The position numbers and the translations under genes are program-made. DNA of 64,000 nucleotides from Escherichia phage OliverMaurmann_Bas86. Shown here piece by piece: positions 1,709-55,470 of this stretch (the first letter of the stretch is position 1; each line of letters opens with the position of its first letter). The notes beneath the pieces were generated by a model. That model had not been told where the DNA came from and searched no databases. It worked only from the letters and a program-made list of their open reading frames with translations. Location of the stretch: the sequence record PQ850622.1; one strand, 5' to 3'.

Positions 1709-1927
1709 ATGAAAATGATGAAACAGGTAACTTATGGTCTAGCTTGCTTAGGGACAGGTTTTGTGATTTCCACAGCAGTACCTGTAAATGCAGTAGGCTC
1801 TCATTCTATTATAGAAGCTCCTGTAGAGAAGCTTAGTTCTCAATGTAAACAAAGGACCATTCAAAATAATTTGGTTGTTATTTGCCCAGACGCTCAATCT
1901 TCAGCTCTGAGAAAAATTCTTCCTTAA
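1709..1927 (+). CDS. Small protein with N-terminal hydrophobic segment (secreted protein or single-TMD holin candidate)
   Basis: RBS aaaggag. MKMMKQ then VTYGLACLGTGFVISTAVPVNAV. Sits directly upstream of the endolysin. Confidence 0.5.
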   Translation: MKMMKQVTYGLACLGTGFVISTAVPVNAVGSHSIIEAPVEKLSSQCKQRTIQNNLVVICPDAQSSALRKILP

Positions 1928-1960
1928 TTGACCTAAAATAACAACAAAAGGAGGTCAAAG

Positions 1961-2452
1961 ATGGACGCTATCGCATTGCCGCCTGTACAGATGAGCCTAA
2001 GTCCGGCTGGTATGGAGTTTATCATGAAGCATGAAGGCATGAGAACTAAAGCCTATAAAGACTCCGCTGGAATCTGGACTATATGTGTAGGGGCTACGCG
2101 CGATATGAATGGGTATCCAGTAAGACAAGGATTAACGTATTCTATAGAGGATTGTCTAGCTCTGCTAGATAGAGACACACAAGACTCTGTTCGTGCTACT
2201 CAGAAAAACATAAGAGTTCCTATGCTAGCTCATGAATTTGATGCTGTCACTTCTTTCAACTTTAATGTTGGTGGTGGTGCTTTGTCAGCTTCAAAACTTA
2301 GGAAAGTGATCAACGGAGATGTGAAGGGTGATGTTTACTCAGAGTTCTTACGTTGGGATAAGATAACTGTTAAAGGTGTAAAGCAGCGGAGTCCGGGACT
2401 TCACAATCGCAGGGTTGCAGAAGCAAATCTATACACTACAGGAAAATATTAA
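1961..2452 (+). CDS. Endolysin, GH24 (T4/lambda-type lysozyme)
   Basis: HEGMRTKAYKDSAGIWTICVGAT matches the E-x8-D-x5-T lysozyme catalytic motif. RBS aaaggagg. Confidence 0.85.
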   Translation: MDAIALPPVQMSLSPAGMEFIMKHEGMRTKAYKDSAGIWTICVGATRDMNGYPVRQGLTYSIEDCLALLDRDTQDSVRATQKNIRVPMLAHEFDAVTSFNFNVGGGALSASKLRKVINGDVKGDVYSEFLRWDKITVKGVKQRSPGLHNRRVAEANLYTTGKY

Positions 2453-2464
2453 TGGAGGTGCCTT

Positions 2465-3268
2465 TTGGCTATCGAAACAACTGCGGTAGTTACTACCGAT
2501 TTAAACCCCCTATACCCACGGGACAGGGACTACCTTTATGAAGGGGCTGCCCAGATACGACTGGTCAAACAAGTCTTAATTAACACTTTCCCTAACATCA
2601 CAGAGCCGGTTCAACTTGACTCAGATTCTTTCAACATCCTAGCAAACAAGGTCTCTTTTACTGGAGACTCTATGGACGTTGGTGGTTTGATGATTAAGAA
2701 CCTAACTCCGGGAACTGGTGATAAAGATGCTGTAACCAAAGGTCAGATGGAAGCTTTCATGTTGAATTGGATGCAAAATAAACTATACCGTATTGGTTCT
2801 TATTACATCACTGAGGAAGATATTAATCCGGGAGACTCCAGCTCTCTTGGCTTCGGTTCTTGGGCTAAAGTAACTGGTGTTGTTATGGGTACTGGTGTTG
2901 TTAACCCTGACGGTTCTGTTCCTAACGCCCAGCGTGTGGAATTCCAAGCAGGTGGTACAGGAGGTCGTGTATTCAACACAATCCGTGCTGATAATATGCC
3001 TCTTACTACAATCAATGGTTCTAGTTTCCAAGTCAGTTCTTATTCCCACTCGCACAACATCACGATGGGTCGAGGTGATGCTAGTGGTCACAATAGCAGC
3101 CCTAATTGGTATAGTCCGGGTGGTGGTTACACTCAGGTAACTGACACCAACACTCACTCCCACTCAATCACAGGTTCTGTTAGTTTTGGGCGTGATGATG
3201 TATCAAGACAACCTATCAACACTTTGCCGCCTTTCAGAGCAGCGCATATTTGGAGACGTATTAGCTAA
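2465..3268 (+). CDS. Tail fiber-like protein with C-terminal HxH repeats
   Basis: TTG start behind ggaggtg. DAVTKGQMEAF fiber N-motif. HSHSHNIT..THSHSITG repeats resemble metal-binding fiber tips. Confidence 0.6.
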   Translation: MAIETTAVVTTDLNPLYPRDRDYLYEGAAQIRLVKQVLINTFPNITEPVQLDSDSFNILANKVSFTGDSMDVGGLMIKNLTPGTGDKDAVTKGQMEAFMLNWMQNKLYRIGSYYITEEDINPGDSSSLGFGSWAKVTGVVMGTGVVNPDGSVPNAQRVEFQAGGTGGRVFNTIRADNMPLTTINGSSFQVSSYSHSHNITMGRGDASGHNSSPNWYSPGGGYTQVTDTNTHSHSITGSVSFGRDDVSRQPINTLPPFRAAHIWRRIS

Positions 3269-3277
3269 GGAGGAATC

Positions 3278-6200
3278 ATGGCGCTTTATCCAATAAAATC
3301 TTTAGGGGCTGTAGGGGTTATTGCTGACCAAGCTCCAACTGATTTAGCACCTAATGCTTTCACTAATGCTATCAATGCCCGCTTTGTAGAGCAAAGAGTT
3401 TTTAAGACGGGGGGCAATGCCCCTCTTTCTTATGTAGAAGAAGATAAAGAGATTACACCACTCTCTTTTATCTCAATGCCTTTTGACTACTACAGTGCAG
3501 GTAATAGCTTTCTGGTTGTTGGTACAGACAAAAAGCTATATAAGTTGACAGATGAAAGCTTGACAGATATCAGCCGTAAGGTTGCCACTGTCACAAAAAG
3601 AGCTTCTGCTTCTATTAAGATTTATCCGGTTGTTTCTCAGATTGTTCCTAAAGAGACTTCCATTTCAATGAATTTCAACCAAACTAAAACTTTGGAAGTT
3701 TCTGTTCTTCCGGAAGATGCTAATAATACATCTCTGGTTTGGGAAGTCAGTAATTCCTCTTATGGTAAGGTAGAGGTTGATCCTAGTAATCCTAAAATTG
3801 CAACTCTAACTTCTTATGAAAGAGAGGGGAATTTAGTAGTCACTGTATCAACAGCCGATGAATCTATCAGCGCTCAGATTGCAGTAAACATTATAGATGG
3901 TGATTCTGGTATCTTCTTAAGCCAAGACACAATAACCGTTCGTAAAGGTGGTAACACTACAATAACTGCTGTTACTGGAAAAACCCCTGTAACTTGGACT
4001 TCTAGTAACAATTCAATCCTCTCCATCACACCGAACACTAACACACTAACGGCATCCTTATTTGCAAATGGAGAAGGCAGTGTTACTGTAACAGCGGATA
4101 ATGGCGTGAAGAGTGCTTCGTGCCAAGTTAATGTTATACCACAGATTGACAGCATCACTCTAAGTCAGACTGATGTCCAAATGAGCAGAGGTACTCAGTA
4201 CGTCCTGACTGCTACAGTTAATCCTTCAGATGCTCCTAATAAGACGATAACTTGGACTTCCTCTAACCCTAATATTGCTACAGTTTCCGGAAACAGTACA
4301 GAAGCAGTAATCACTGGACTACTTGCTGGGTTTACTGAAATCACAGCTGTTACCCAAGAAGGAAATAGAGCAGCAACTTGTACGGTAAGGGTAGACCTAG
4401 GTGGAAGAATGATGCGAACTTCTGCAATGTCTTTTTCGGAACCTATGGTTAAGGAGGTACAGTCAGAGGTTGACAATACCTATGCCCCTGCTGAAACAGA
4501 AGAGGTTTTGTATTTTGTAAGTGAGCCTTCTGGTATAGACACTTCAGGTATGTACGAAGGGAACAACTTCTACGACTACTCAAACGTCAATGACATGGAA
4601 GGTTTTGCACGGGCTGCACTTTTGGCTAACGATGCTCCTTTACAGTCGCTCTCTTTAGATATTATTAATGCATCCCTTGATGTTGGAGAAGACATTGTAA
4701 TCACAGCTAATGCTTTACCTGAGGGAGAGTATTTCTACCAGTGGACAGTAGACAAAGCAGGTTATGTTTCAACTACATCTACTACTGGAAAATCTCTAAA
4801 ACTGACAGCTATTCGTAAAGGTGAGATCAAAGTTACTTGTACTGCTAGTCAAATGACTCAGAAAGATTATGATGCTTTTGACGACTATCCTTGGTATCAC
4901 ACCATAATCTCTAACTGTGCAGTGGCTACCACTCATTATGAAACACCACAGGTCAAAGAGTTTGAATCTGAGTATTTCGTAGATCTTCCGGGATGGGGTG
5001 AGCAAACAGTCGTTGATAATGATGGCAATCCTTCTGTTAAGAAATTTAACTGGAAGTGTGAGCGTATTCGTGCATTCAACAACAGACTTTTTGCTCTGAA
5101 TATGAGGGAATCTAATGCATCTGGTGTAACTACTCACTACCCTCTAAGACTTCGGTGGTCGAATTTCGCTAACGAAAACAAAGCTCCATCTCTTTGGGAT
5201 GATTATGCTTATGATCGTTTAACAACTTCAGACCTATCAGCAAACATTGTTGGTCAAACTGAGGCTTTGGAAAATGGGTACGCTGGGTATATAGATTTAG
5301 CAGATTCTAACGGAAGTTTGATTGATGTACTTCCTCTGAAAGATTACCTTTTTGTTTACACGGAGTTCGAAACCTACATTGGTTCTCCAACCAATAACAC
5401 ATATCAGCCCCTTATGTTTAAGAAGCTGTTTAATGACTCTGGCATACTTGCTCCTGAGTGTGCAGTTGAAGTCGAAGGTGGACACTTCGTAGTAACTCAA
5501 AATGATGTGATCTTACATAATGGTGCATCTAAAAAATCTATAGCATCTAACCGAGTCAAGAATCTTCTCATTAATGAGATCTGTCTAGTAAACCCTCTAG
5601 CTACTAGAGTTCACCTACACCAAGACAAGAAAGAGGTTTGGGTTTTATATGTAGGTCCGGGAGAGCCTAAAGAGAGTTTTGCTTGTAATAAAGCCGCTGT
5701 TTGGAATTATGAGTTTGACACTTGGTCTTTCCGTACAATACCATATGCTCAGTGTATTGGGTTAGTCGATCCACCAGTTCTTGAGAGAGGTCCAATCTGG
5801 GCAGATTTTCAAGAGATCACTTGGGATGATCCCTCTATTAACCAATTAGTCTGGAGAAAGGATGCTAATAACTTCCGTCAAAGGATTACAATAGTTGGCT
5901 CTTTCCTGAAGGGATTCTATCAAGTGGATGTTGGTGCTCTGGACTACATCTATGATAGAACCAATGATAGGATTATAGAAAAACCTTTAGAAATGAGGCT
6001 AGAAAGAACTGGTATTGATTTTGATAATGTCACTAATGAGTGGAATCAAAAACATATTAATAGATTTAGACCTCAAGTTACTGGTACAGGTACTTATACT
6101 TTTGAAGTCGGTGGAAGTCAATTCTCAAACGAGTATGGACACAATCACTCAACTAAAGAGTTTAGGGTAGGCTCAGATCGTCATGTATCCGTGAGACTGA

Positions 6201-39739: not shown

Positions 39740-40975
39740 TTACAGAGTTACTGCTACTTCGCTACCTTCAACATTGACAGACTCTAACTTGCGAGGGTTA
39801 TGAATCTGTACCGGATTAACCGGAACGTTCCAACCACTACGGTAGAAGTTACGACCATCACAGAACAAAATGACATTGGCAGACATTGCATTCGGTTGCA
39901 GGTTGTTATGGACATGACGGATATCTGCAATCCAATAACCACGAGACAAAGTGTAACCAGTAGGTGCATTACGAATAGTTTGAGTATTCATCTGACCTTC
40001 CAGTTGCATCTCTTCAGGAACTACATCTACCGAATCAACTGGCTGTGCTACCTGATCTTCCAGTGCAAAGTTTTCATCATTAGCGCTTTCGCTGTCATCT
40101 ACCAACTCACCGTCTCCATCTTCAATCGGAGTCTGGTAAACCACTTTATACTGAGGAGTATAGAGAGGGTTCTGAGCTTTAACAAACTCAAGGATGTTAT
40201 GGCGGTAGGTATCCAGAGTTGTACCAGTCAGGCCCGGTGCTGTATTAACTTCCAGTACCCACGCTTCTTGACCTTTGGTGATAATATCAACTGCACCGAA
40301 ATCCAGACCCATTGATTCAACAGCTTTCACCGCATTGATCAGAGAGGCGTCATTCGGAGCATCTGTGAAGGAGCTTGAGTAAACCCAGCCAGTGTGGTGA
40401 TTACGAATATCTTCACGATAGTTAGGGTCTTCGCGATAACCATTGCGACGAATCTTCTTCTGAACATAGGTGATTACACCTTTGAACACATGAACACGCC
40501 ACTCACGACGTGGGCCTTGAATGCCTTTAGTGTACAGTTCAGCTCGACCAAGACCATCACCCGGTTCTACAACAACAATACCCGAACCAGAGTGACCAGT
40601 CAGCTCATGGCGCTCATACACAATATTACCAGTGTTTGACCACTCCTGAGCAGTCTCTTGAACATCTGTGTATTCCACAGTTTTAACACCTGCTTGGTCC
40701 ATCACACTGAAAGCACGACGTTTGTTCGCTGCCATATATAAGGCTGCGGTACGGTTAAGGACGGTTGCAGAACCAAAGAATGATTCAGGATAGCGACGGT
40801 TCCCGTAGTTAACAACCACATCACCTTCACGAGAACGCCAGCGGCTATTCTCTGAAAGAAGACCCATCACGTTAGCATTGATGCGTTCATCACGGATAGT
40901 ATCACTGATAGCAGATACTAGAGCGTTAACAGAATCAGACGGGCCATACGGAAGAACACGGATACGAGTAGTCAT
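39740..40975 (-). CDS. ATP-grasp ligase (RimK-like)
   Basis: Layout and motifs fit an ATP-grasp fold (..ANKRRAF..GV.TV.., EWRVHVFKG, DFGAVDII..WVLEVNTAPGL). The C-terminal 130 aa are unassigned. Confidence 0.75.
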   Translation of the reverse strand: MTTRIRVLPYGPSDSVNALVSAISDTIRDERINANVMGLLSENSRWRSREGDVVVNYGNRRYPESFFGSATVLNRTAALYMAANKRRAFSVMDQAGVKTVEYTDVQETAQEWSNTGNIVYERHELTGHSGSGIVVVEPGDGLGRAELYTKGIQGPRREWRVHVFKGVITYVQKKIRRNGYREDPNYREDIRNHHTGWVYSSSFTDAPNDASLINAVKAVESMGLDFGAVDIITKGQEAWVLEVNTAPGLTGTTLDTYRHNILEFVKAQNPLYTPQYKVVYQTPIEDGDGELVDDSESANDENFALEDQVAQPVDSVDVVPEEMQLEGQMNTQTIRNAPTGYTLSRGYWIADIRHVHNNLQPNAMSANVILFCDGRNFYRSGWNVPVNPVQIHNPRKLESVNVEGSEVAVTL

Positions 40976-41424: not shown

Positions 41425-43458
41425 TTAGTGTTTACCTTTACAGTAATCTGAATTACAGATCACCCTGTTTTCTTTGTTCAGTGAGCAAGTTTCTGCATCA
41501 CGCCACGGAATTTGTTTATAACAGACTGCACAAAACCCAATTGAAGTCCAGAGGGCTTTTGTAAACTCAGCTGTTCGTTGTCCATCGTAACTGACAACTG
41601 TTTTTCGGAGAGAGGTTGACTTTTCTGGAAATGTCTCCGCTTTCTCAGCGGGTACCTCCTTTGGGGCATTCTTTGGACCATAAACAGAGATGGCATAAGT
41701 ATCACCACCACGTTTTTCCAAATACGAATTAGGAACATCTGCAAGTGTGATGTCCCCTGAACGTTTTGCTGAGCTGACCATTACAATCATACGGCTAAGC
41801 ATACGTTCATCAACACGAACAGCTACTTCAGGACGACGTGGGTTGGTTGTGTCTACTGCTTTAGTCCAAATATAACCTTCAGATAGAGTAACATTCTTTA
41901 CTTTATCTTTGATTTCTTTGGAGCAGATATAACAAACGTCTTCACCACGAAGTTTACTCATTTCGTTGTCAAACTCGAAATCAGTCTTGACTTCACCACA
42001 GATAGCACATACACCCAAAGGCACATCTTCTTCCTCTTCAGAGGTTTTAGATAACGCTTCGAAGCATTCTGGATGCCAGTATGCCTGATAAGCAAACACA
42101 GCCTTACGAGCATCTTTCCAGTCAATGTGCTTATCACAACCACCACAGTCACCATGAGAGTGAGATTCCCAGAACTTACGAGTGACTTCTACACCATTCT
42201 TAGTGATGAAGGAGTCCTCTGCATCAAAAGGGATATCATCATCAAAATCAGCAGTAGTGCTTTGAGGCTCCTTATCTGTAGCATCAACAAACAGCCCTGA
42301 AGTTAGTACGAGGCGAATCATACTGTCCACTTCGGAGATACAAGCGATTGTCCCGCGATATACTACCTTTGGGTTTTCAAGAGCCTTAAGATATTCATCT
42401 TTGGCTACGTTGTGAACATCCCCTTCGACATACTCTTGGGCTTTATCATCGTAGATGTAACCAACCATCTTACCACGATCTGTGTTGTTATAAGCATGGA
42501 ACTCGTGAGGAGTAATATCCACACGACCATCACGACGATAAGGAAGACCACGATCGGCAGCCAGTTTGTTCTGGTCTTCAATCGCTTTACGACGACGAAT
42601 GTCTCCGCTTGTCACGCCGGGCTTGTCGTCTTTGTTTCCGTAAATGTCGCTTGTGCTGCTGCTTGGTTTGTTTGTCTGTTGGTTCTGATAAAGAGAGGAG
42701 TTCGAGTAATAGCCGCCCCAGCGACTCGTTACCGTAAAAACCGGAAGCTTGTGCTCCACCTCTTGAACCAGAGTCATACGACTGTTAGACACATCAAAGA
42801 TATACTCAGTTCCCACTTTACACTCGAAGTGGTCATTGATACGGTTCTTGTGGGATTTAGAACGCTCTAAAATCCACATAAGCATAGCTTCTTCAGAAGC
42901 CCCAAACCAATCCAAACCACAGCGGGCTAGGTGGAAAGGACGCTCATCATTACGGATAATGTGAAGCGTGTTGTCTTTAGCATCATGCCAAATCAAAGTG
43001 AATGCACCATCCAGTTTTTGGATAGTCTCTGCTGCTCCAATGGTGTTAATTGAGTGGCAGATGTTTTCACTATCAACTTCGAAACGCTTACTGTCAGGAA
43101 GGAGATCTTGATCTAACAGGGTTCCATTATGAACCAGAGTAATATCCCCGTGAGTAAATGGGTGAGCATTTCGAGCATTGACAGCCCCACGAGTGGCATG
43201 TCGGCTGTGACCAACAATCCACGAAGGAGGAACTACGTAGTTCGTAAGCCCTTTGGTAATATTTGTATATTCTGTCTGGAGCATAAAAGCATAAGAAGGA
43301 AGAGCTTCTTTATAAGAGAAGACTTGCTTTTCACCTTTACGCTGACCAAACACACCAGTTGAGTGCTGTCCACGGAAAACACCAGCATACAGAAGTTGGT
43401 TGAAAATGTCCAAATCTGCTGAGGTCATGTTGCCGCCAGCTAATACGATACCACAAAT
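41425..43458 (-). CDS. Class II (Ntn) glutamine amidotransferase fused to a Cys-rich zinc-ribbon region; predicted ATT start
   Basis: The frame upstream of ATG 43428 reads TAG-AAA-ATT-TGT-GGT-ATC-GTA, giving (M)CGIVLAGG, the canonical GATase-II N-terminus, behind aggtgga. HSRHATRG and NAHPF motifs are present. The C-terminal half has 3-4 CxxC pairs. Confidence 0.8.
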   Translation of the reverse strand: MCGIVLAGGNMTSADLDIFNQLLYAGVFRGQHSTGVFGQRKGEKQVFSYKEALPSYAFMLQTEYTNITKGLTNYVVPPSWIVGHSRHATRGAVNARNAHPFTHGDITLVHNGTLLDQDLLPDSKRFEVDSENICHSINTIGAAETIQKLDGAFTLIWHDAKDNTLHIIRNDERPFHLARCGLDWFGASEEAMLMWILERSKSHKNRINDHFECKVGTEYIFDVSNSRMTLVQEVEHKLPVFTVTSRWGGYYSNSSLYQNQQTNKPSSSTSDIYGNKDDKPGVTSGDIRRRKAIEDQNKLAADRGLPYRRDGRVDITPHEFHAYNNTDRGKMVGYIYDDKAQEYVEGDVHNVAKDEYLKALENPKVVYRGTIACISEVDSMIRLVLTSGLFVDATDKEPQSTTADFDDDIPFDAEDSFITKNGVEVTRKFWESHSHGDCGGCDKHIDWKDARKAVFAYQAYWHPECFEALSKTSEEEEDVPLGVCAICGEVKTDFEFDNEMSKLRGEDVCYICSKEIKDKVKNVTLSEGYIWTKAVDTTNPRRPEVAVRVDERMLSRMIVMVSSAKRSGDITLADVPNSYLEKRGGDTYAISVYGPKNAPKEVPAEKAETFPEKSTSLRKTVVSYDGQRTAEFTKALWTSIGFCAVCYKQIPWRDAETCSLNKENRVICNSDYCKGKH

Positions 43459-43535
43459 TTTCTAATCCACCTGAAGGGTAAACCCTTTCATCTAATTAAC
43501 CTTTAAATGCGCCCTGTATAAGAGCGCCCGTTGTG

Positions 43536-44636
43536 TTACAGCAGTCGTTCTAATTGCATTTCCAGAAGGTCTGGAATATAACCAGTGACGTTATCATCAC
43601 TGCTACCTGATTCACGCATCAATGCAAACATGTGACGAATTTCACGAACCGTTGCGATTCGAGTGCTTTCAATCTGAGGGGTGTAGTAGGTCATGATCTC
43701 TTCGTAGACACTGTTGGCATTACCGCGCACATATCCCAAGAAACCATAGAAGTCATTCATATCACGTAAGTTGATAAGGACTTCACCATCAGGGCCAGTC
43801 TGTTGCACACGAACACGACCAACCAAAGTCACAGATTGCTCACGACAGAAGAGAATATCACGAGCAAGACGATACCCTTCAGTGAGATCACTGTCTCTTG
43901 GAGTATAGTCTAGGGGTAGATGTTGAATCATAGGAGCGAAGCGCAGCTCATTCAACTTCTCAACATAAGCTTCATTGTCTAAATCTGCATATTCAACAGC
44001 CAGTTTCTTGAGAACCAAGAAGCGGTTGACCAGATTCAGAAGTTGGCTCTTTTTCCACTTCGGCTCTGAGATACGGAACTCAACAGAACCAAATTGAGAT
44101 AGAGGCAAAAGATTAAGGGAGGTATATTTATCCCAGCTATTAACAAGAGAGTGGAAGAAAGCTTCCCCGTCTCGGTTGAACGCTGACGAAGCATTCATAA
44201 CTTGTGCTTGAACGACAGCAAAAGCTGGACAGAAGTTGCTACGATAGCGATGGTATCCAGAACATTTGAACATCATCTTTTCATAGAACGTCCATCCAAG
44301 AATAACTTTCTTAAGGATGTTACTATCAGCGTCACGCATATCCATATGAACATGAGTGGAGCAGCGCCAAGTTCCCTCGGCTCCAGAATCCTGTACTGCT
44401 TCACTCAGATTGTTAATAGCACGAAGTAATTCTTCACCGTTGTAAGGTCGTGCACATACTAATTCACAACCATCACGAAGAGAGCCATCTTCAGTACAAA
44501 CCCACATATCAGCGTCAATGTCAGTTGTACCTTCGACTTCTAACTCAATACCAACACCACACTGAAAAGCAATACTTGGATGCGGTTCAGATAAGCGAGG
44601 GTTACGGTATCCAAAAACTTGTGCTACGGTTGTCAT
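43536..44636 (-). CDS. Amidoligase_2-family (GS-like) enzyme
   Basis: GVGIELEVEG, TEDGSLRDGCELV and CSTHVHMD match my recollection of the putative amidoligase family. Confidence 0.7.
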   Translation of the reverse strand: MTTVAQVFGYRNPRLSEPHPSIAFQCGVGIELEVEGTTDIDADMWVCTEDGSLRDGCELVCARPYNGEELLRAINNLSEAVQDSGAEGTWRCSTHVHMDMRDADSNILKKVILGWTFYEKMMFKCSGYHRYRSNFCPAFAVVQAQVMNASSAFNRDGEAFFHSLVNSWDKYTSLNLLPLSQFGSVEFRISEPKWKKSQLLNLVNRFLVLKKLAVEYADLDNEAYVEKLNELRFAPMIQHLPLDYTPRDSDLTEGYRLARDILFCREQSVTLVGRVRVQQTGPDGEVLINLRDMNDFYGFLGYVRGNANSVYEEIMTYYTPQIESTRIATVREIRHMFALMRESGSSDDNVTGYIPDLLEMQLERLL

Positions 44637-45259
44637 AATGATTCCACCAACTCTACATTATATGATGACAGGTCTGAAGAAATATGCTTGAACTTCTCCA
44701 GAAGGTTTAAAGATTGACGACCATTGTCGCCATAACCAGCTTCAAGAAGCACGTTTCCAACGTAAGCCCCTTTGTAATAAACTTTTCCATCGACAGGATT
44801 GATATAGATGAAACGAGTAACCAACCCTTCAAACTCTGGATTAAACAGGTTGTACACCAATTCACCCGGAATCGAACGACCGAGAGAAGGAGGTGCACCG
44901 CGAAGTTTGTTTCCCATCAAACCTTTAGCTCTCTGACGAACAGGGTTGATATGGGTCCAGCTCACCATGTTATTGCCATGCTGAAGGTATCCTACATCTG
45001 GAGATTCCAGAATAAGGCTGTGATCAAACACTGGTATATTGCTAACAATCTGACGTTCAAACTGACCTTCAGAGTTTTTAGTCCAACGTTCTGCCTCAAA
45101 CACTAAAGACATTTCAGCGTCGTGTGAGTAGTCGTCGATATCAAAGTTACCTTGCTGACGAACATCAAGCACATATAGAGGGAGGTTTTTACCATCAGGT
45201 GATCGCTGAGCAATCCATGTTCCACAATAATAGTGTTGAAAATCTCTTAACAAGCTCAC
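44633..45259 (-). CDS. Hypothetical protein of the amidoligase cluster
   Basis: 208-aa ORF, translationally coupled on both sides. Confidence 0.55.
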   Translation of the reverse strand: MSLLRDFQHYYCGTWIAQRSPDGKNLPLYVLDVRQQGNFDIDDYSHDAEMSLVFEAERWTKNSEGQFERQIVSNIPVFDHSLILESPDVGYLQHGNNMVSWTHINPVRQRAKGLMGNKLRGAPPSLGRSIPGELVYNLFNPEFEGLVTRFIYINPVDGKVYYKGAYVGNVLLEAGYGDNGRQSLNLLEKFKHISSDLSSYNVELVESL

Positions 45260-45268
45260 AATATCACC

Positions 45269-46078
45269 TTATACAATCTGGAGTTTAGAGGAGAATTTAT
45301 CCGCTTCTTTAACATCGTTGCTGTTGATGATGTTATGAAGCTTTTCGATTGGAAGACGAGAGTGAAGTGACATCAACACTTCCATATCACAGCCTTGAAC
45401 AACCTTATCCACTTGCTCATAAACAAACTTGCGGGTTGACTTCTCACCAATCCAGAAGTTAGAAAGAGAACGATATTCAATACCGTAGTCCTTGTAACGA
45501 ATAGCAGAAGCCTTTCCGTACAACTCTTTACGACGAGTGTCTTTATCCATGATTACAGCTGGCAAGGACAGGAAGTAATCACACAGCACACCCAACATCA
45601 TTTGAGTTTGTCGATTGATCTCCAAAGTTCCAGAGACACCGAGGTGCACATGGCCCCCAGCAGTACGCAAACCTTTATCGGTTGCGACTGGTGAAGGGTT
45701 CTTTTGTCCAGTGAAGGCGTTGAAATCAGGAGTACAGCCAAATACAAAAGCTGACGGATGGAATGATTCAAGCTCTTCTGAAGTGAACACATGAGAGCTA
45801 ATCCCAAGCGCTGCTTCCAGACCACGATCATTCAGGATTTTGTTAGTCAGATCAATACCGCGCTGAATATTATCATCAAACGCTTCAAACCCTTTCTGTG
45901 GGTTAATATCAAACTCAGCCAGAACGTTGTCTTCTTGAAGACGAACATCAGGAGCCAGATCAATTTTGTTATCTTTAGAACATCCCAGCTTACCAGCCAC
46001 AGAGGTGATAATACCGGAAGCAGTACGAACAAACATTTCCGGATCCGACCCTATTAAGAATTTACGTTTAGTAGTCAT
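45269..46078 (-). CDS. phiEco32-type COOH-NH2 ligase (GCS-like, type 2)
   Basis: N-terminal FLIGSDPEMFV and the later GGHVHLG fit my recollection of this family. Confidence 0.65.
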   Translation of the reverse strand: MTTKRKFLIGSDPEMFVRTASGIITSVAGKLGCSKDNKIDLAPDVRLQEDNVLAEFDINPQKGFEAFDDNIQRGIDLTNKILNDRGLEAALGISSHVFTSEELESFHPSAFVFGCTPDFNAFTGQKNPSPVATDKGLRTAGGHVHLGVSGTLEINRQTQMMLGVLCDYFLSLPAVIMDKDTRRKELYGKASAIRYKDYGIEYRSLSNFWIGEKSTRKFVYEQVDKVVQGCDMEVLMSLHSRLPIEKLHNIINSNDVKEADKFSSKLQIV

Positions 46079-52392: not shown

Positions 52393-52470
52393 TGGTGCAC
52401 CCTACAGGATTCGAACCTGTAACCGACGACTTAGAAGGTCGCTACTCTAATCCAATTGAGCTAAGGGTGC
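52393..52470 (-). tRNA. tRNA-Arg (anticodon UCU), CCA encoded
   Basis: Minus strand reads GCACCCTTAGCTCAATTGGATTAGAGTAGCGACCTTCTAAGTCGTCGGTTACAGGTTCGAATCCTGTAGGGTGCACCA. 7-bp acceptor stem GCACCCT/AGGGTGC, anticodon loop CTTCTAA, T-loop GGTTCGAATCC. Confidence 0.9.
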
Positions 52471-54949: not shown

Positions 54950-55336
54950 TCAGTCACGGGAGCTATTATTGAACACTAAATCACCACAATACATCGGATT
55001 GGTATACCACTTTGGCACCCCTTCGCTCTTACTCTGAAAGTATGTACCGCTGTACAAAGGCACATAATCTTTCTTCAGTGCACGTCTTGCAAGCCGCTCG
55101 CTCTCTCTGATTGATCTCTTTATCAGAGAGTTATCATCACGAATTAGCTTTACATAACGCTTAAAAGGTTTCTCCTTCTTTAATAGGACGGGTATCCACT
55201 CGAACTGGTTTCGTTGATTTATAACCTGCTCGGCAGTCAGTTTTCGTTGTGACATTCTGTTTATTACGGTATCCGCTACTAATGCTTTGCAAGCGGTTGG
55301 CTGATTCCCTGCCTCATAATAAATAGTCAATGTCAA
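54950..55336 (-). CDS. SleB-type cell wall hydrolase (Hydrolase_2) homolog
   Basis: IYYEAGNQP..ALVADTVINRM..VINQRNQFEW matches E-A..AV..V-x-NR..V-x-x-x-x-QF. TTG start; the upstream frame is open to 55363. Confidence 0.65.
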   Translation of the reverse strand: MTLTIYYEAGNQPTACKALVADTVINRMSQRKLTAEQVINQRNQFEWIPVLLKKEKPFKRYVKLIRDDNSLIKRSIRESERLARRALKKDYVPLYSGTYFQSKSEGVPKWYTNPMYCGDLVFNNSSRD

Positions 55337-55389
55337 AAGTAGCTGGGCTGTCGTTATCAGAACTTACTACCCCCTTGTTTTACGGGCAT

Positions 55390-55415
55390 AAAAAAGCCCC
55401 ATCCGAAGACGGGGC
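55390..55415 (-). terminator. Rho-independent terminator (third of three)
   Basis: Minus strand reads GCCCCGTC-ttcg-GATGGGGC followed by TTTTTTAT. Confidence 0.85.
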
Positions 55416-55470
55416 GACCTGAAAGAGTGAACATGACCTCACTCATTTAAGAATCCTCGAAAAGACTCTT

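Follow-up and report, generated by a model that had tools for sequence, protein, structure and literature searches.

Where does translation begin in the class-II glutamine amidotransferase gene of Escherichia phage OliverMaurmann_Bas86? In the 64,000-nucleotide (nt) stretch of DNA that was analyzed (sequence record PQ850622.1, hereafter the window), the first canonical ATG of this gene gives a protein without the catalytic cysteine, which is encoded directly after an ATT codon located further upstream in the same frame. The window belongs to a phiEco32-like podovirus (Gordonclarkvirinae), and at this locus it shares 99.9% identity with Escherichia phage Bas87 and about 98% with SU7. Judging from the comparison with homologous genes, the AUU at 43458-43456 is very probably the physiological start, giving an enzyme with Cys1 as its N-terminal residue. 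The elements of the start site are the following:

41425-43458, minus strand: full amidotransferase coding sequence (CDS) read from the ATT, 677 codons plus stop; Bas87_0079 is annotated over the same span.
43456-43458, minus strand: proposed initiation codon ATT (AUU), shared by Aeromonas phage BUCT695 and every one of the 96 E. coli/Shigella relatives.
43453-43455, minus strand: TGT, codon of the catalytic nucleophile Cys, residue 1 after removal of the initiator Met.
43459-43465, minus strand: A-rich spacer TTAGAAA, which includes an in-frame TAG (43462-43464), so that the frame ends 3 nt ahead of the ATT.
43466-43472, minus strand: Shine-Dalgarno (SD) sequence AGGTGGA, with a 7-nt spacer to the ATT and a predicted duplex of -7.0 kcal/mol with the 16S 3' end.
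43426-43428, minus strand: first canonical ATG, codon 11 (Met), the annotated start in SU7 and most other records; not conserved.

Read on the minus strand, TTCAGGTGGATTAGAAA is followed by ATT TGT GGT ATC GTA TTA GCT GGC GGC AAC ATG ACC TCA. The initial annotation had stated that the product of the ATG at 43428 begins with MTSADL and lacks the N-terminal nucleophile, that the reading ATT-TGT-GGT-ATC-GTA gives (M)CGIVLAGGNM, and that AGGTGGA is located 7 nt before the ATT. The strand and its open reading frames (ORFs) agree with all three statements (667 amino acids (aa) from the ATG, 677 aa from the ATT), and only the upstream offset of 33 nt had to be corrected, as the ATT is located 30 nt and the TAG 36 nt upstream of the ATG. 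The frame is closed upstream by the TAG, with the single codon AAA (43461-43459) between it and the ATT, the SD is found at a functional spacing, and the next canonical start drops the nucleophile and is itself unconserved. An SD followed by a near-cognate codon is not special on its own, as eight such sites were found upstream of the first canonical starts of long ORFs in the window. The strongest site of this control scan, an SD with CTG, was considered spurious because it falls in an intergenic region (55330-55420, minus strand) where a strong terminator-like hairpin and its T-run (GGTCGCCCCGTCTTCGGATGGGGCTTTTTT) precede a promoter-like pair, TTGACA...TATTAT. The site at 43458 was deemed real because of homology and comparative conservation, and not because of the pattern alone.

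At the position aligned with the ATT, 11 homologues of other lineages carry ATG-TGT-GG (M-C-G-I/L-V), i.e., the IMG/VR contigs L010 and L011 (39-43% identity; L numbers denote loci of our collection) and nine phage lineages with hosts in Proteus, Cronobacter, Salmonella, Aeromonas, Pseudoalteromonas, Pseudomonas, and Vibrio. Codons 2-8 (CGIVLAG) were compared in nine sequences (eight Gordonclarkvirinae from four genera together with BUCT695), and the changes in the five variable codons were all synonymous. Codon 11 is ATG only in the window lineage (including SU7) and in ECBP2 among these nine, the others having CTG (Kuravirus), CTC (EP335 and KBNP1711, Nieuwekanaalvirus), or AAC (BUCT695). 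In addition, Kuravirus has no in-frame ATG, GTG, or TTG in the first 50 codons and EP335 none before codon 46. Since codon 11 varies and sister genera are without a nearby canonical start, the ATG at 43428 cannot be the conserved start. The same ATT is present in 98 independently sequenced phage genomes and also in metagenomes. The N-terminal peptide predicted for the ATT-start product without Met is CGIVLAGGNMTSADLDIFNQLLYAGVFR, and the ATT-extended SU10 protein is CGIVLAGGNLSSTDLDVFNQLFYAGVFR. Two readings had been left standing initially, namely that the gene uses a rare AUU start or that its product lacks the nucleophile; on the comparative evidence, the former is strongly favored and the latter disfavored. 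This comparative proof appears to be new, while the ATT start itself was already deposited for phiEco32.

The N-terminal ~240 aa form an Ntn (N-terminal nucleophile) class-II glutaminase domain, with a Cys-rich C-terminal region behind it. It matched Pfam GATase_6 (E = 2.7e-14, 53.7 bits vs. a cut-off of 27), together with GATase_7 (25.1 vs. 25) and, slightly under its cut-off, GATase_4 (22 vs. 23). Cys2 (the codon after the start) was invariant in 16/16 aligned homologues, as were R86, T89, H99, N111-G112, and D129; in a pairwise alignment with E. coli GlmS, the latter residues fall on Arg73, Thr76, His86, Asn98-Gly99, and Asp123, the glutamine-site residues of GlmS (glutamine-binding, oxyanion). 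The Cys at position 1 of the family profile aligns to residue 1 of GlmS (1xff, E = 1.4e-13) and also to residue 1 of PurF from E. coli and B. subtilis (1ecb and 1ao0). Of the hallmarks of a class-II amidotransferase, the glutamine-site residues and a significant family-model match are present, and a Cys that is first in the mature protein is obtained only if the ATT is the start. Because the glutamine-site residues are invariant and the Cys aligns to residue 1, the active site is intact and under selection and needs an N-terminal Cys1, which supports the view that the phage amidoligase/ATP-grasp/amidotransferase cluster would encode an active glutamine-hydrolyzing enzyme. The SU10 orthologue, gp85, was detected by mass spectrometry with nine peptides (SU10 paper), so it is made during infection. 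Neither the 677-aa nor the 667-aa protein had an exact-sequence match in the protein collection. The C-terminal ~430 residues (window 41425-42700) gave no Pfam match except a weak, sub-threshold LIM, and contain repeated Cys-pair motifs resembling zinc ribbons (HGDCGGCDKHIDW, GVCAICGE, CYICSKE, GFCAVCYKQIPW), with matching repeats in BUCT695. At one further locus (L085/L163, IMGVR_UViG_3300025276_000050) the gene starts with ATG TGC TGT GG (M-C-C-G-I-V), i.e., with two consecutive Cys codons, and the nucleophile would be either Cys1 with an extra residue, or Cys2.

The codon preceding the Cys codon was recorded in 195 distinct loci (three IMG/VR scans plus GenBank, metagenome, and genome-collection loci), which were grouped into lineages at 60% identity:

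ATG: 151 loci, 100 lineages.
ATT: 26 loci, 23 lineages.
ATC: 7 loci, 6 lineages.
TTG: 9 loci, 9 lineages.
GTG: 2 loci, 2 lineages.
Total: 195 loci, 140 lineages.

ATA and CTG were not found at this position among the 195 loci. ATT or ATC is used by 33/195 loci and 29/140 lineages (about one fifth of the lineages), and in 27 of these 33 loci, reading upstream in frame meets a stop before any canonical start. The scan seeded by the window's own protein returned ATT or ATC in 11 of 80 loci, and the genome-collection scan provided 7 loci, too few for replication. On the tree, the ATT/ATC lineages are scattered, with the ATG-starting GP100 nested among L115, L120, and L124 (clade 92/100). Non-ATG starts usually follow the order GTG, then TTG, with ATT far rarer, and this order is inverted in the family, from which we infer selection for weak initiation of the enzyme. 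We lean toward the view that the weak codon was selected to limit or gate expression. The recurrence of AUU/AUC over about one fifth of the lineages of a phage enzyme family appears to be new.

The ATT is embedded in a leader with three further elements:

43451-43505, minus strand: 55-nt block TAAAGG...ATT TGT GG, without a difference among eight Gordonclarkvirinae sequences (four genera).
43462-43491, minus strand: mini-ORF ATG AAA GGG TTT ACC CTT CAG GTG GAT TAG (MKGFTLQVD*), nine codons, in frame.
43472-43490, minus strand: hairpin UGAA(A)GGG-UUUA-CCCUUCA, seen in predicted folds, with its core AAGGG/CCCTT at 43474-43487 and a 3' arm that adjoins the SD.

In the alignment, the flanking coding sequence varies at about one third of the columns vs. 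none in the 55-nt block, and across all 96 E. coli/Shigella records, identity over the 69-73 nt surrounding the start is 97% or higher. The Aeromonas phage BUCT695 (Grimontviridae) matches the leader at 44/46 nt although its protein is merely 39% identical, and the similarity starts abruptly 5 nt before the mini-ORF ATG. In the protein tree, BUCT695 groups with the ATG-starting Cronobacter phage A24 (93/100 bootstrap) and the Gordonclarkvirinae with an ATG-starting clade (94/100), and the two ATT lineages are placed together in 0/100. Because the leader is shared and the protein tree is incongruent with it, the leader was either exchanged laterally or repeatedly lost. Both the invariance of the leader and its tree-incongruent distribution appear to be new. 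The spacer-region sequence AGAAAATTTGTGG is common to the window, L044, L103, L123, L134, and BUCT695, and the SD equivalents are AGGCGGA in BUCT695 and AGGAGGA in L044. The block occurs once in the window. A known RNA family was not recognized in it (a permissive Rfam scan gave chance-level hits alone), a stable fold was rejected as the cause of the invariance since predicted energies were no better than shuffled (z -0.2 to -0.45), and no sigma-70-like promoter or terminator-like site was present in the leader. Nor does the leader contain the phage-sigma motif AATGTATA, of which the rest of the window has seven copies.

As for the origin of the leader, A24 (L014, ~370-400) has the sequence AATGTAAATAGATGAAAGGATGTTTTT-ATG, in which AAAGGA is the SD of an ordinary ATG start and TAGATGAAAGG is in common with the window leader. 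The phiEco32-type leader looks like this sequence with an insertion of ~24 nt (3' half of the hairpin, new SD, and TTAGAAA) and a change from ATG to ATT. Between the amidoligase stop and the leader (43509-43527, minus strand) there is a G+C-rich hairpin, GCGCUCU-UAUAC-AGGGCGC, the stem of which varies in sequence by genus (GUGCC../..GGCAC in phiEco32 and EP335) with the pairing kept; no T-run is found behind it, which sets it apart from a canonical terminator. ATG-starting Grimontviridae relatives and BUCT695 have a hairpin and then TTTAAATGTA(A), ~20-35 nt before the start codon (L012, 2495-2520; L013, L014, L015, L021, L064-L070), and the window has TTTAAAGGTTAA at the corresponding place. 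TTTAAATGTA(A) resembles the phage-sigma (gp36) promoter motif tAATGTATAtA described in the SU10 paper, and a phage-sigma promoter may drive the gene in these Grimontviridae relatives.

The mini-ORF spans both the hairpin and the SD, with its stop 3 nt before the AUU, and is present in the Gordonclarkvirinae and in BUCT695. The metagenomic L044 (CAG GAG GAT TAG AAA ATT TGT GG) has no start codon in the short frame, and in L140, which is 60% identical to the window enzyme, a CTG replaces the mini-ORF ATG, so the mini-ORF was rejected as a universal partner of the AUU. Because these two loci lack a start codon there, the mini-ORF is probably not essential and would be at most accessory. Readthrough of its stop to make a propeptide is unlikely; the search for an amber suppressor tRNA in the window returned only tRNA-Arg(TCT), with ~13 kb of the genome being located outside the window. 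A -1 frameshift from the out-of-frame ATG of L103-type leaders (ATGAGAAAATT) was also rejected, as no slippery heptamer was seen on reading. Many AUU/AUC leaders have a stop codon directly 3' of the SD (GGAGGATAG, GGAGGATAA, GGATTAG), in frames that differ relative to the start (L120, L124, L142, L150, L153, L159, L162, L167, L169, L189, L243, and the window); this stop could mark termination-reinitiation or reflect shared leader ancestry.

In every AUU/AUC leader of the discovery set, a small hairpin ends 13-16 nt before the start codon, with stems that are unrelated in sequence (AAGGG/CCCTT, CCTGA/TCAGG, AGACTAA/TTAGTCT, ACGACA/TGTCGT, GCCCT/AGGGC, and others). In BUCT695 the change lies in the hairpin loop, and L140 shows a compensatory stem extension (AAGGGAT/ATCCCTT). 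The rule derived from these leaders (stem of at least 4 bp with at least two G-C pairs, loop of 3-8 nt, 3' end at -17 to -12) was frozen and applied to a held-out set of 106 previously unseen loci. In the discovery set, the hairpin was present in 9/9 AUU/AUC vs. 0/79 ATG loci (7/7 vs. 0/38 lineages), and in the held-out set in 12/24 vs. 6/71 loci (10/22 vs. 4/63 lineages; odds ratio 12, p = 1e-4). When position was scanned in the discovery set, the enrichment was confined to -21 to -10. The association between the hairpin and AUU/AUC starts is real but partial, and a hairpin universal among such starts was rejected on the drop from 9/9 to 12/24 loci. The position-specific hairpin appears to be new. 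Osterman et al. reported that expression in E. coli rises when weak hairpins flank the initiation region, and an enhancer or insulator role would fit by analogy. That hairpin, SD, and AUY form one functional module is a tentative proposal; equally speculative is a wider version, in which a module of hairpin, SD, A-rich spacer, and AUU/AUC serves for the IF3-gated (IF3, initiation factor 3) expression of a potentially wasteful glutaminase and arose repeatedly or was laterally exchanged between unrelated phages. Lateral exchange of this kind would account for the 44/46-nt leader shared by phiEco32-like coliphages and an Aeromonas phage whose enzymes are not sister lineages.

Taken in order, initiation at the AUU would proceed as follows. 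The AGGUGGA SD, located 7 nt upstream, would position the 30S subunit on the AUU at 43458-43456, the AUU would be decoded by initiator fMet-tRNA, and deformylase and methionine aminopeptidase would then strip the Met, Cys being a small second residue, thereby exposing Cys1 as the N-terminal nucleophile of the glutaminase domain. Decoding of AUU by the initiator tRNA and the removal of Met before Cys are both established. Because weak starts recur in the family (ATT 26, ATC 7, TTG 9, and GTG 2 of 195), the AUU may be a deliberately weak, IF3-discriminated start that sets a low or regulated level of the enzyme within the operon. The hairpin and the A-rich spacer could support initiation at the weak codon, either by keeping the SD exposed or by stabilizing the 30S-mRNA complex. 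In the phiEco32-like phages, ribosomes that end at the mini-ORF UAG, 3 nt upstream, may add reinitiation, which would be optional because related leaders are without the mini-ORF.

Translation from the ATG at 43428 would omit residues 1-10, including the nucleophile, and result in a catalytically dead or non-glutaminase protein. This ATG comes first among the canonical starts of the ORF, SU7 and most GenBank records annotate the gene from here or from further downstream, and a GGCGG purine run is located a few nt upstream of it; however, the codon is CTG, CTC, or AAC in sister lineages, with Kuravirus having none of the canonical starts within 50 codons, purifying selection acts on the amino acids encoded by codons 2-8, the glutamine-site residues are all conserved, and the homologues start with M-C-G at the position of the ATT, which makes exclusive use of the ATG very improbable. 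A somewhat less remote alternative, which we still consider unlikely, is that lineages with Met11 use both starts, with the AUU giving the active enzyme and ATG11 a shorter inactive isoform. Met11 is indeed present in the window, SU7, and ECBP2, and given the weakness of AUU, ribosomes could conceivably scan to, or initiate independently at, the codon 30 nt downstream, but most relatives are without Met11, so that a second isoform would not be a conserved feature, and no SD of comparable quality precedes ATG11.

The mini-ORF could also be read as the beginning of the gene, with a start at the ATG at 43491, readthrough of the UAG, and autocatalytic removal of a 12-residue propeptide to expose Cys1. 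Some Ntn enzymes process themselves, B. subtilis PurF having an 11-residue propeptide, and its solved chains begin at Cys; the mini-ORF is moreover in frame and conserved in the Gordonclarkvirinae and BUCT695. Yet its TAG is strictly conserved in 98 records with no suppressor tRNA in the window, L044 and L140 keep TAG-AAA/TAA-ATT without an upstream start codon, 27/33 AUU/AUC loci have no in-frame upstream start at all, the ATG-start homologues have no propeptide, and both mini-ORF substitutions in BUCT695 are non-synonymous, leaving this route with very little probability. Nothing apart from the rarity of ATT starts speaks for a sequencing error or a recent inactivating mutation in a pseudogene, and this explanation is effectively refuted by the recurrence of the ATT across 98 phage genomes that were sequenced independently, as well as in metagenomes, by an intact ORF of 677 codons, and by the detection of the SU10 orthologue as a protein.

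Several points weigh against initiation at the AUU as described here. N-terminal or initiation-site data for family members were not found in the open-access literature, and the SU10 proteomics, presumably searched with the truncated annotation, is uninformative on the N-terminus. The ATG at codon 11 of the window lineage also makes a truncated inactive isoform possible, and the intrinsic weakness of AUU could keep the yield low. Two of the three scans (both held-out sets) were seeded with AUU-start queries, and the AUU/AUC frequency of 17-21% is possibly inflated. With regard to the leader, roughly half of the held-out AUU/AUC lineages lack the hairpin, its position window was picked after the discovery data had been seen, and the predicted stability of hairpin and leader does not exceed that of shuffled sequences, as given above. 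A stronger SD that offsets the weak codon was considered and rejected, as AUU/AUC and ATG loci did not differ (p = 0.15).

Initiation at AUU is already known elsewhere, i.e., for infC, pcnB, and Enterococcus faecalis ebpA. The comparison with infC, drawn in the initial annotation, proved apt, with a junction of UAA-GGU-AUU in infC vs. UAG-AAA-AUU here and the stop 3 nt before the AUU in both. The E. coli gene (thrS-infC junction) and the phage gene are alike in having an AUU start, an upstream SD, and an upstream frame, but the latter is a full gene (thrS) in one and a 9-codon mini-ORF, missing in related leaders, in the other; furthermore, the phage gene differs in being phage-encoded and in its hairpin that abuts the SD. 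IF3 discrimination of the phage start would be expected by analogy, and autoregulation is not expected because the product is not IF3. At the thrS-infC junction, reinitiation and de novo initiation contribute about equally. AUU was reported to be 6-8 fold weaker than AUG and, elsewhere, to give 1-2% of AUG, the confirmed AUU starts in E. coli being infC and pcnB only. In E. faecalis ebpA, as reported in PMC4447247, a rare ATT start upstream of a mis-annotated ATG, as in the phage gene, was verified experimentally and attenuates expression, lowering protein output. The ebpA protein and organism are unrelated to the phage gene, for which the ATT start rests on sequence comparison.

Among the closest counterparts is gene 83 of phiEco32 (phi32_83, ABY52884.1), an orthologue whose N-terminal domain is 81-82% identical and which shares the entire 55-nt leader and the ATT start; it differs from the window at codon 11 (CTG vs. 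ATG) and is consequently without an alternative canonical start. The domains of GlmS, PurF, and AsnB resemble the phage enzyme in the N-terminal Cys nucleophile, the M-C-G-I/L-V start, and the Arg/Thr/His/Asn-Gly/Asp sites, whereas the acceptor domain of the phage enzyme is unlike theirs, being neither a sugar isomerase nor a PRTase (phosphoribosyltransferase) nor a synthetase. In practical terms, most deposited phiEco32-like genomes truncate the gene, and the truncated proteins are without the catalytic residue; as gene callers generally ignore ATT/ATC starts, this error will recur in about one fifth of the family lineages. The many apparently independent AUU/AUC starts, together with the invariant leader and the position-specific hairpin, make the family well suited to comparative work on how weak start codons are made to function in bacteria and phages and on the reasons for their selection.

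The ATT start is thus an existing annotation that is inconsistent between records: the CDS begins at the ATT in the phiEco32 record EU330206 (phi32_83), Bas87, Bas90-92, and LAMP, and at the ATG in the SU7 record, and the ATT lies within an annotated CDS in only 6 of the 60 records listed. In the EP335 RefSeq entry (L004, NC_070979; loci 425-1525 and 1774-3618), the amidoligase gene bears an amidotransferase-like product name and the amidotransferase CDS is short by 57 codons, so that the nucleophile and the domain's first strands are lost. The region is among the early genes, transcribed by the host sigma-70 RNA polymerase (SU10 paper). The neighboring genes and the sole tRNA gene of the window are:

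39740-40975: ATP-grasp protein.
43536-44636: amidoligase (Pfam Amidoligase_2).
44633-45259: 208-aa ORF.
45269-46078: phiEco32-type COOH-NH2 ligase.
52393-52470, minus strand: tRNA-Arg, anticodon TCT.

Two scaffolds assigned to Herbiconiux daphne (L140 and L141, 624 and 771 nt) carry phiEco32-/Grimontviridae-like amidotransferase N-termini, one with an ATT start and the other with GTG, and resemble phage contamination of an actinobacterial assembly and not Herbiconiux genes.

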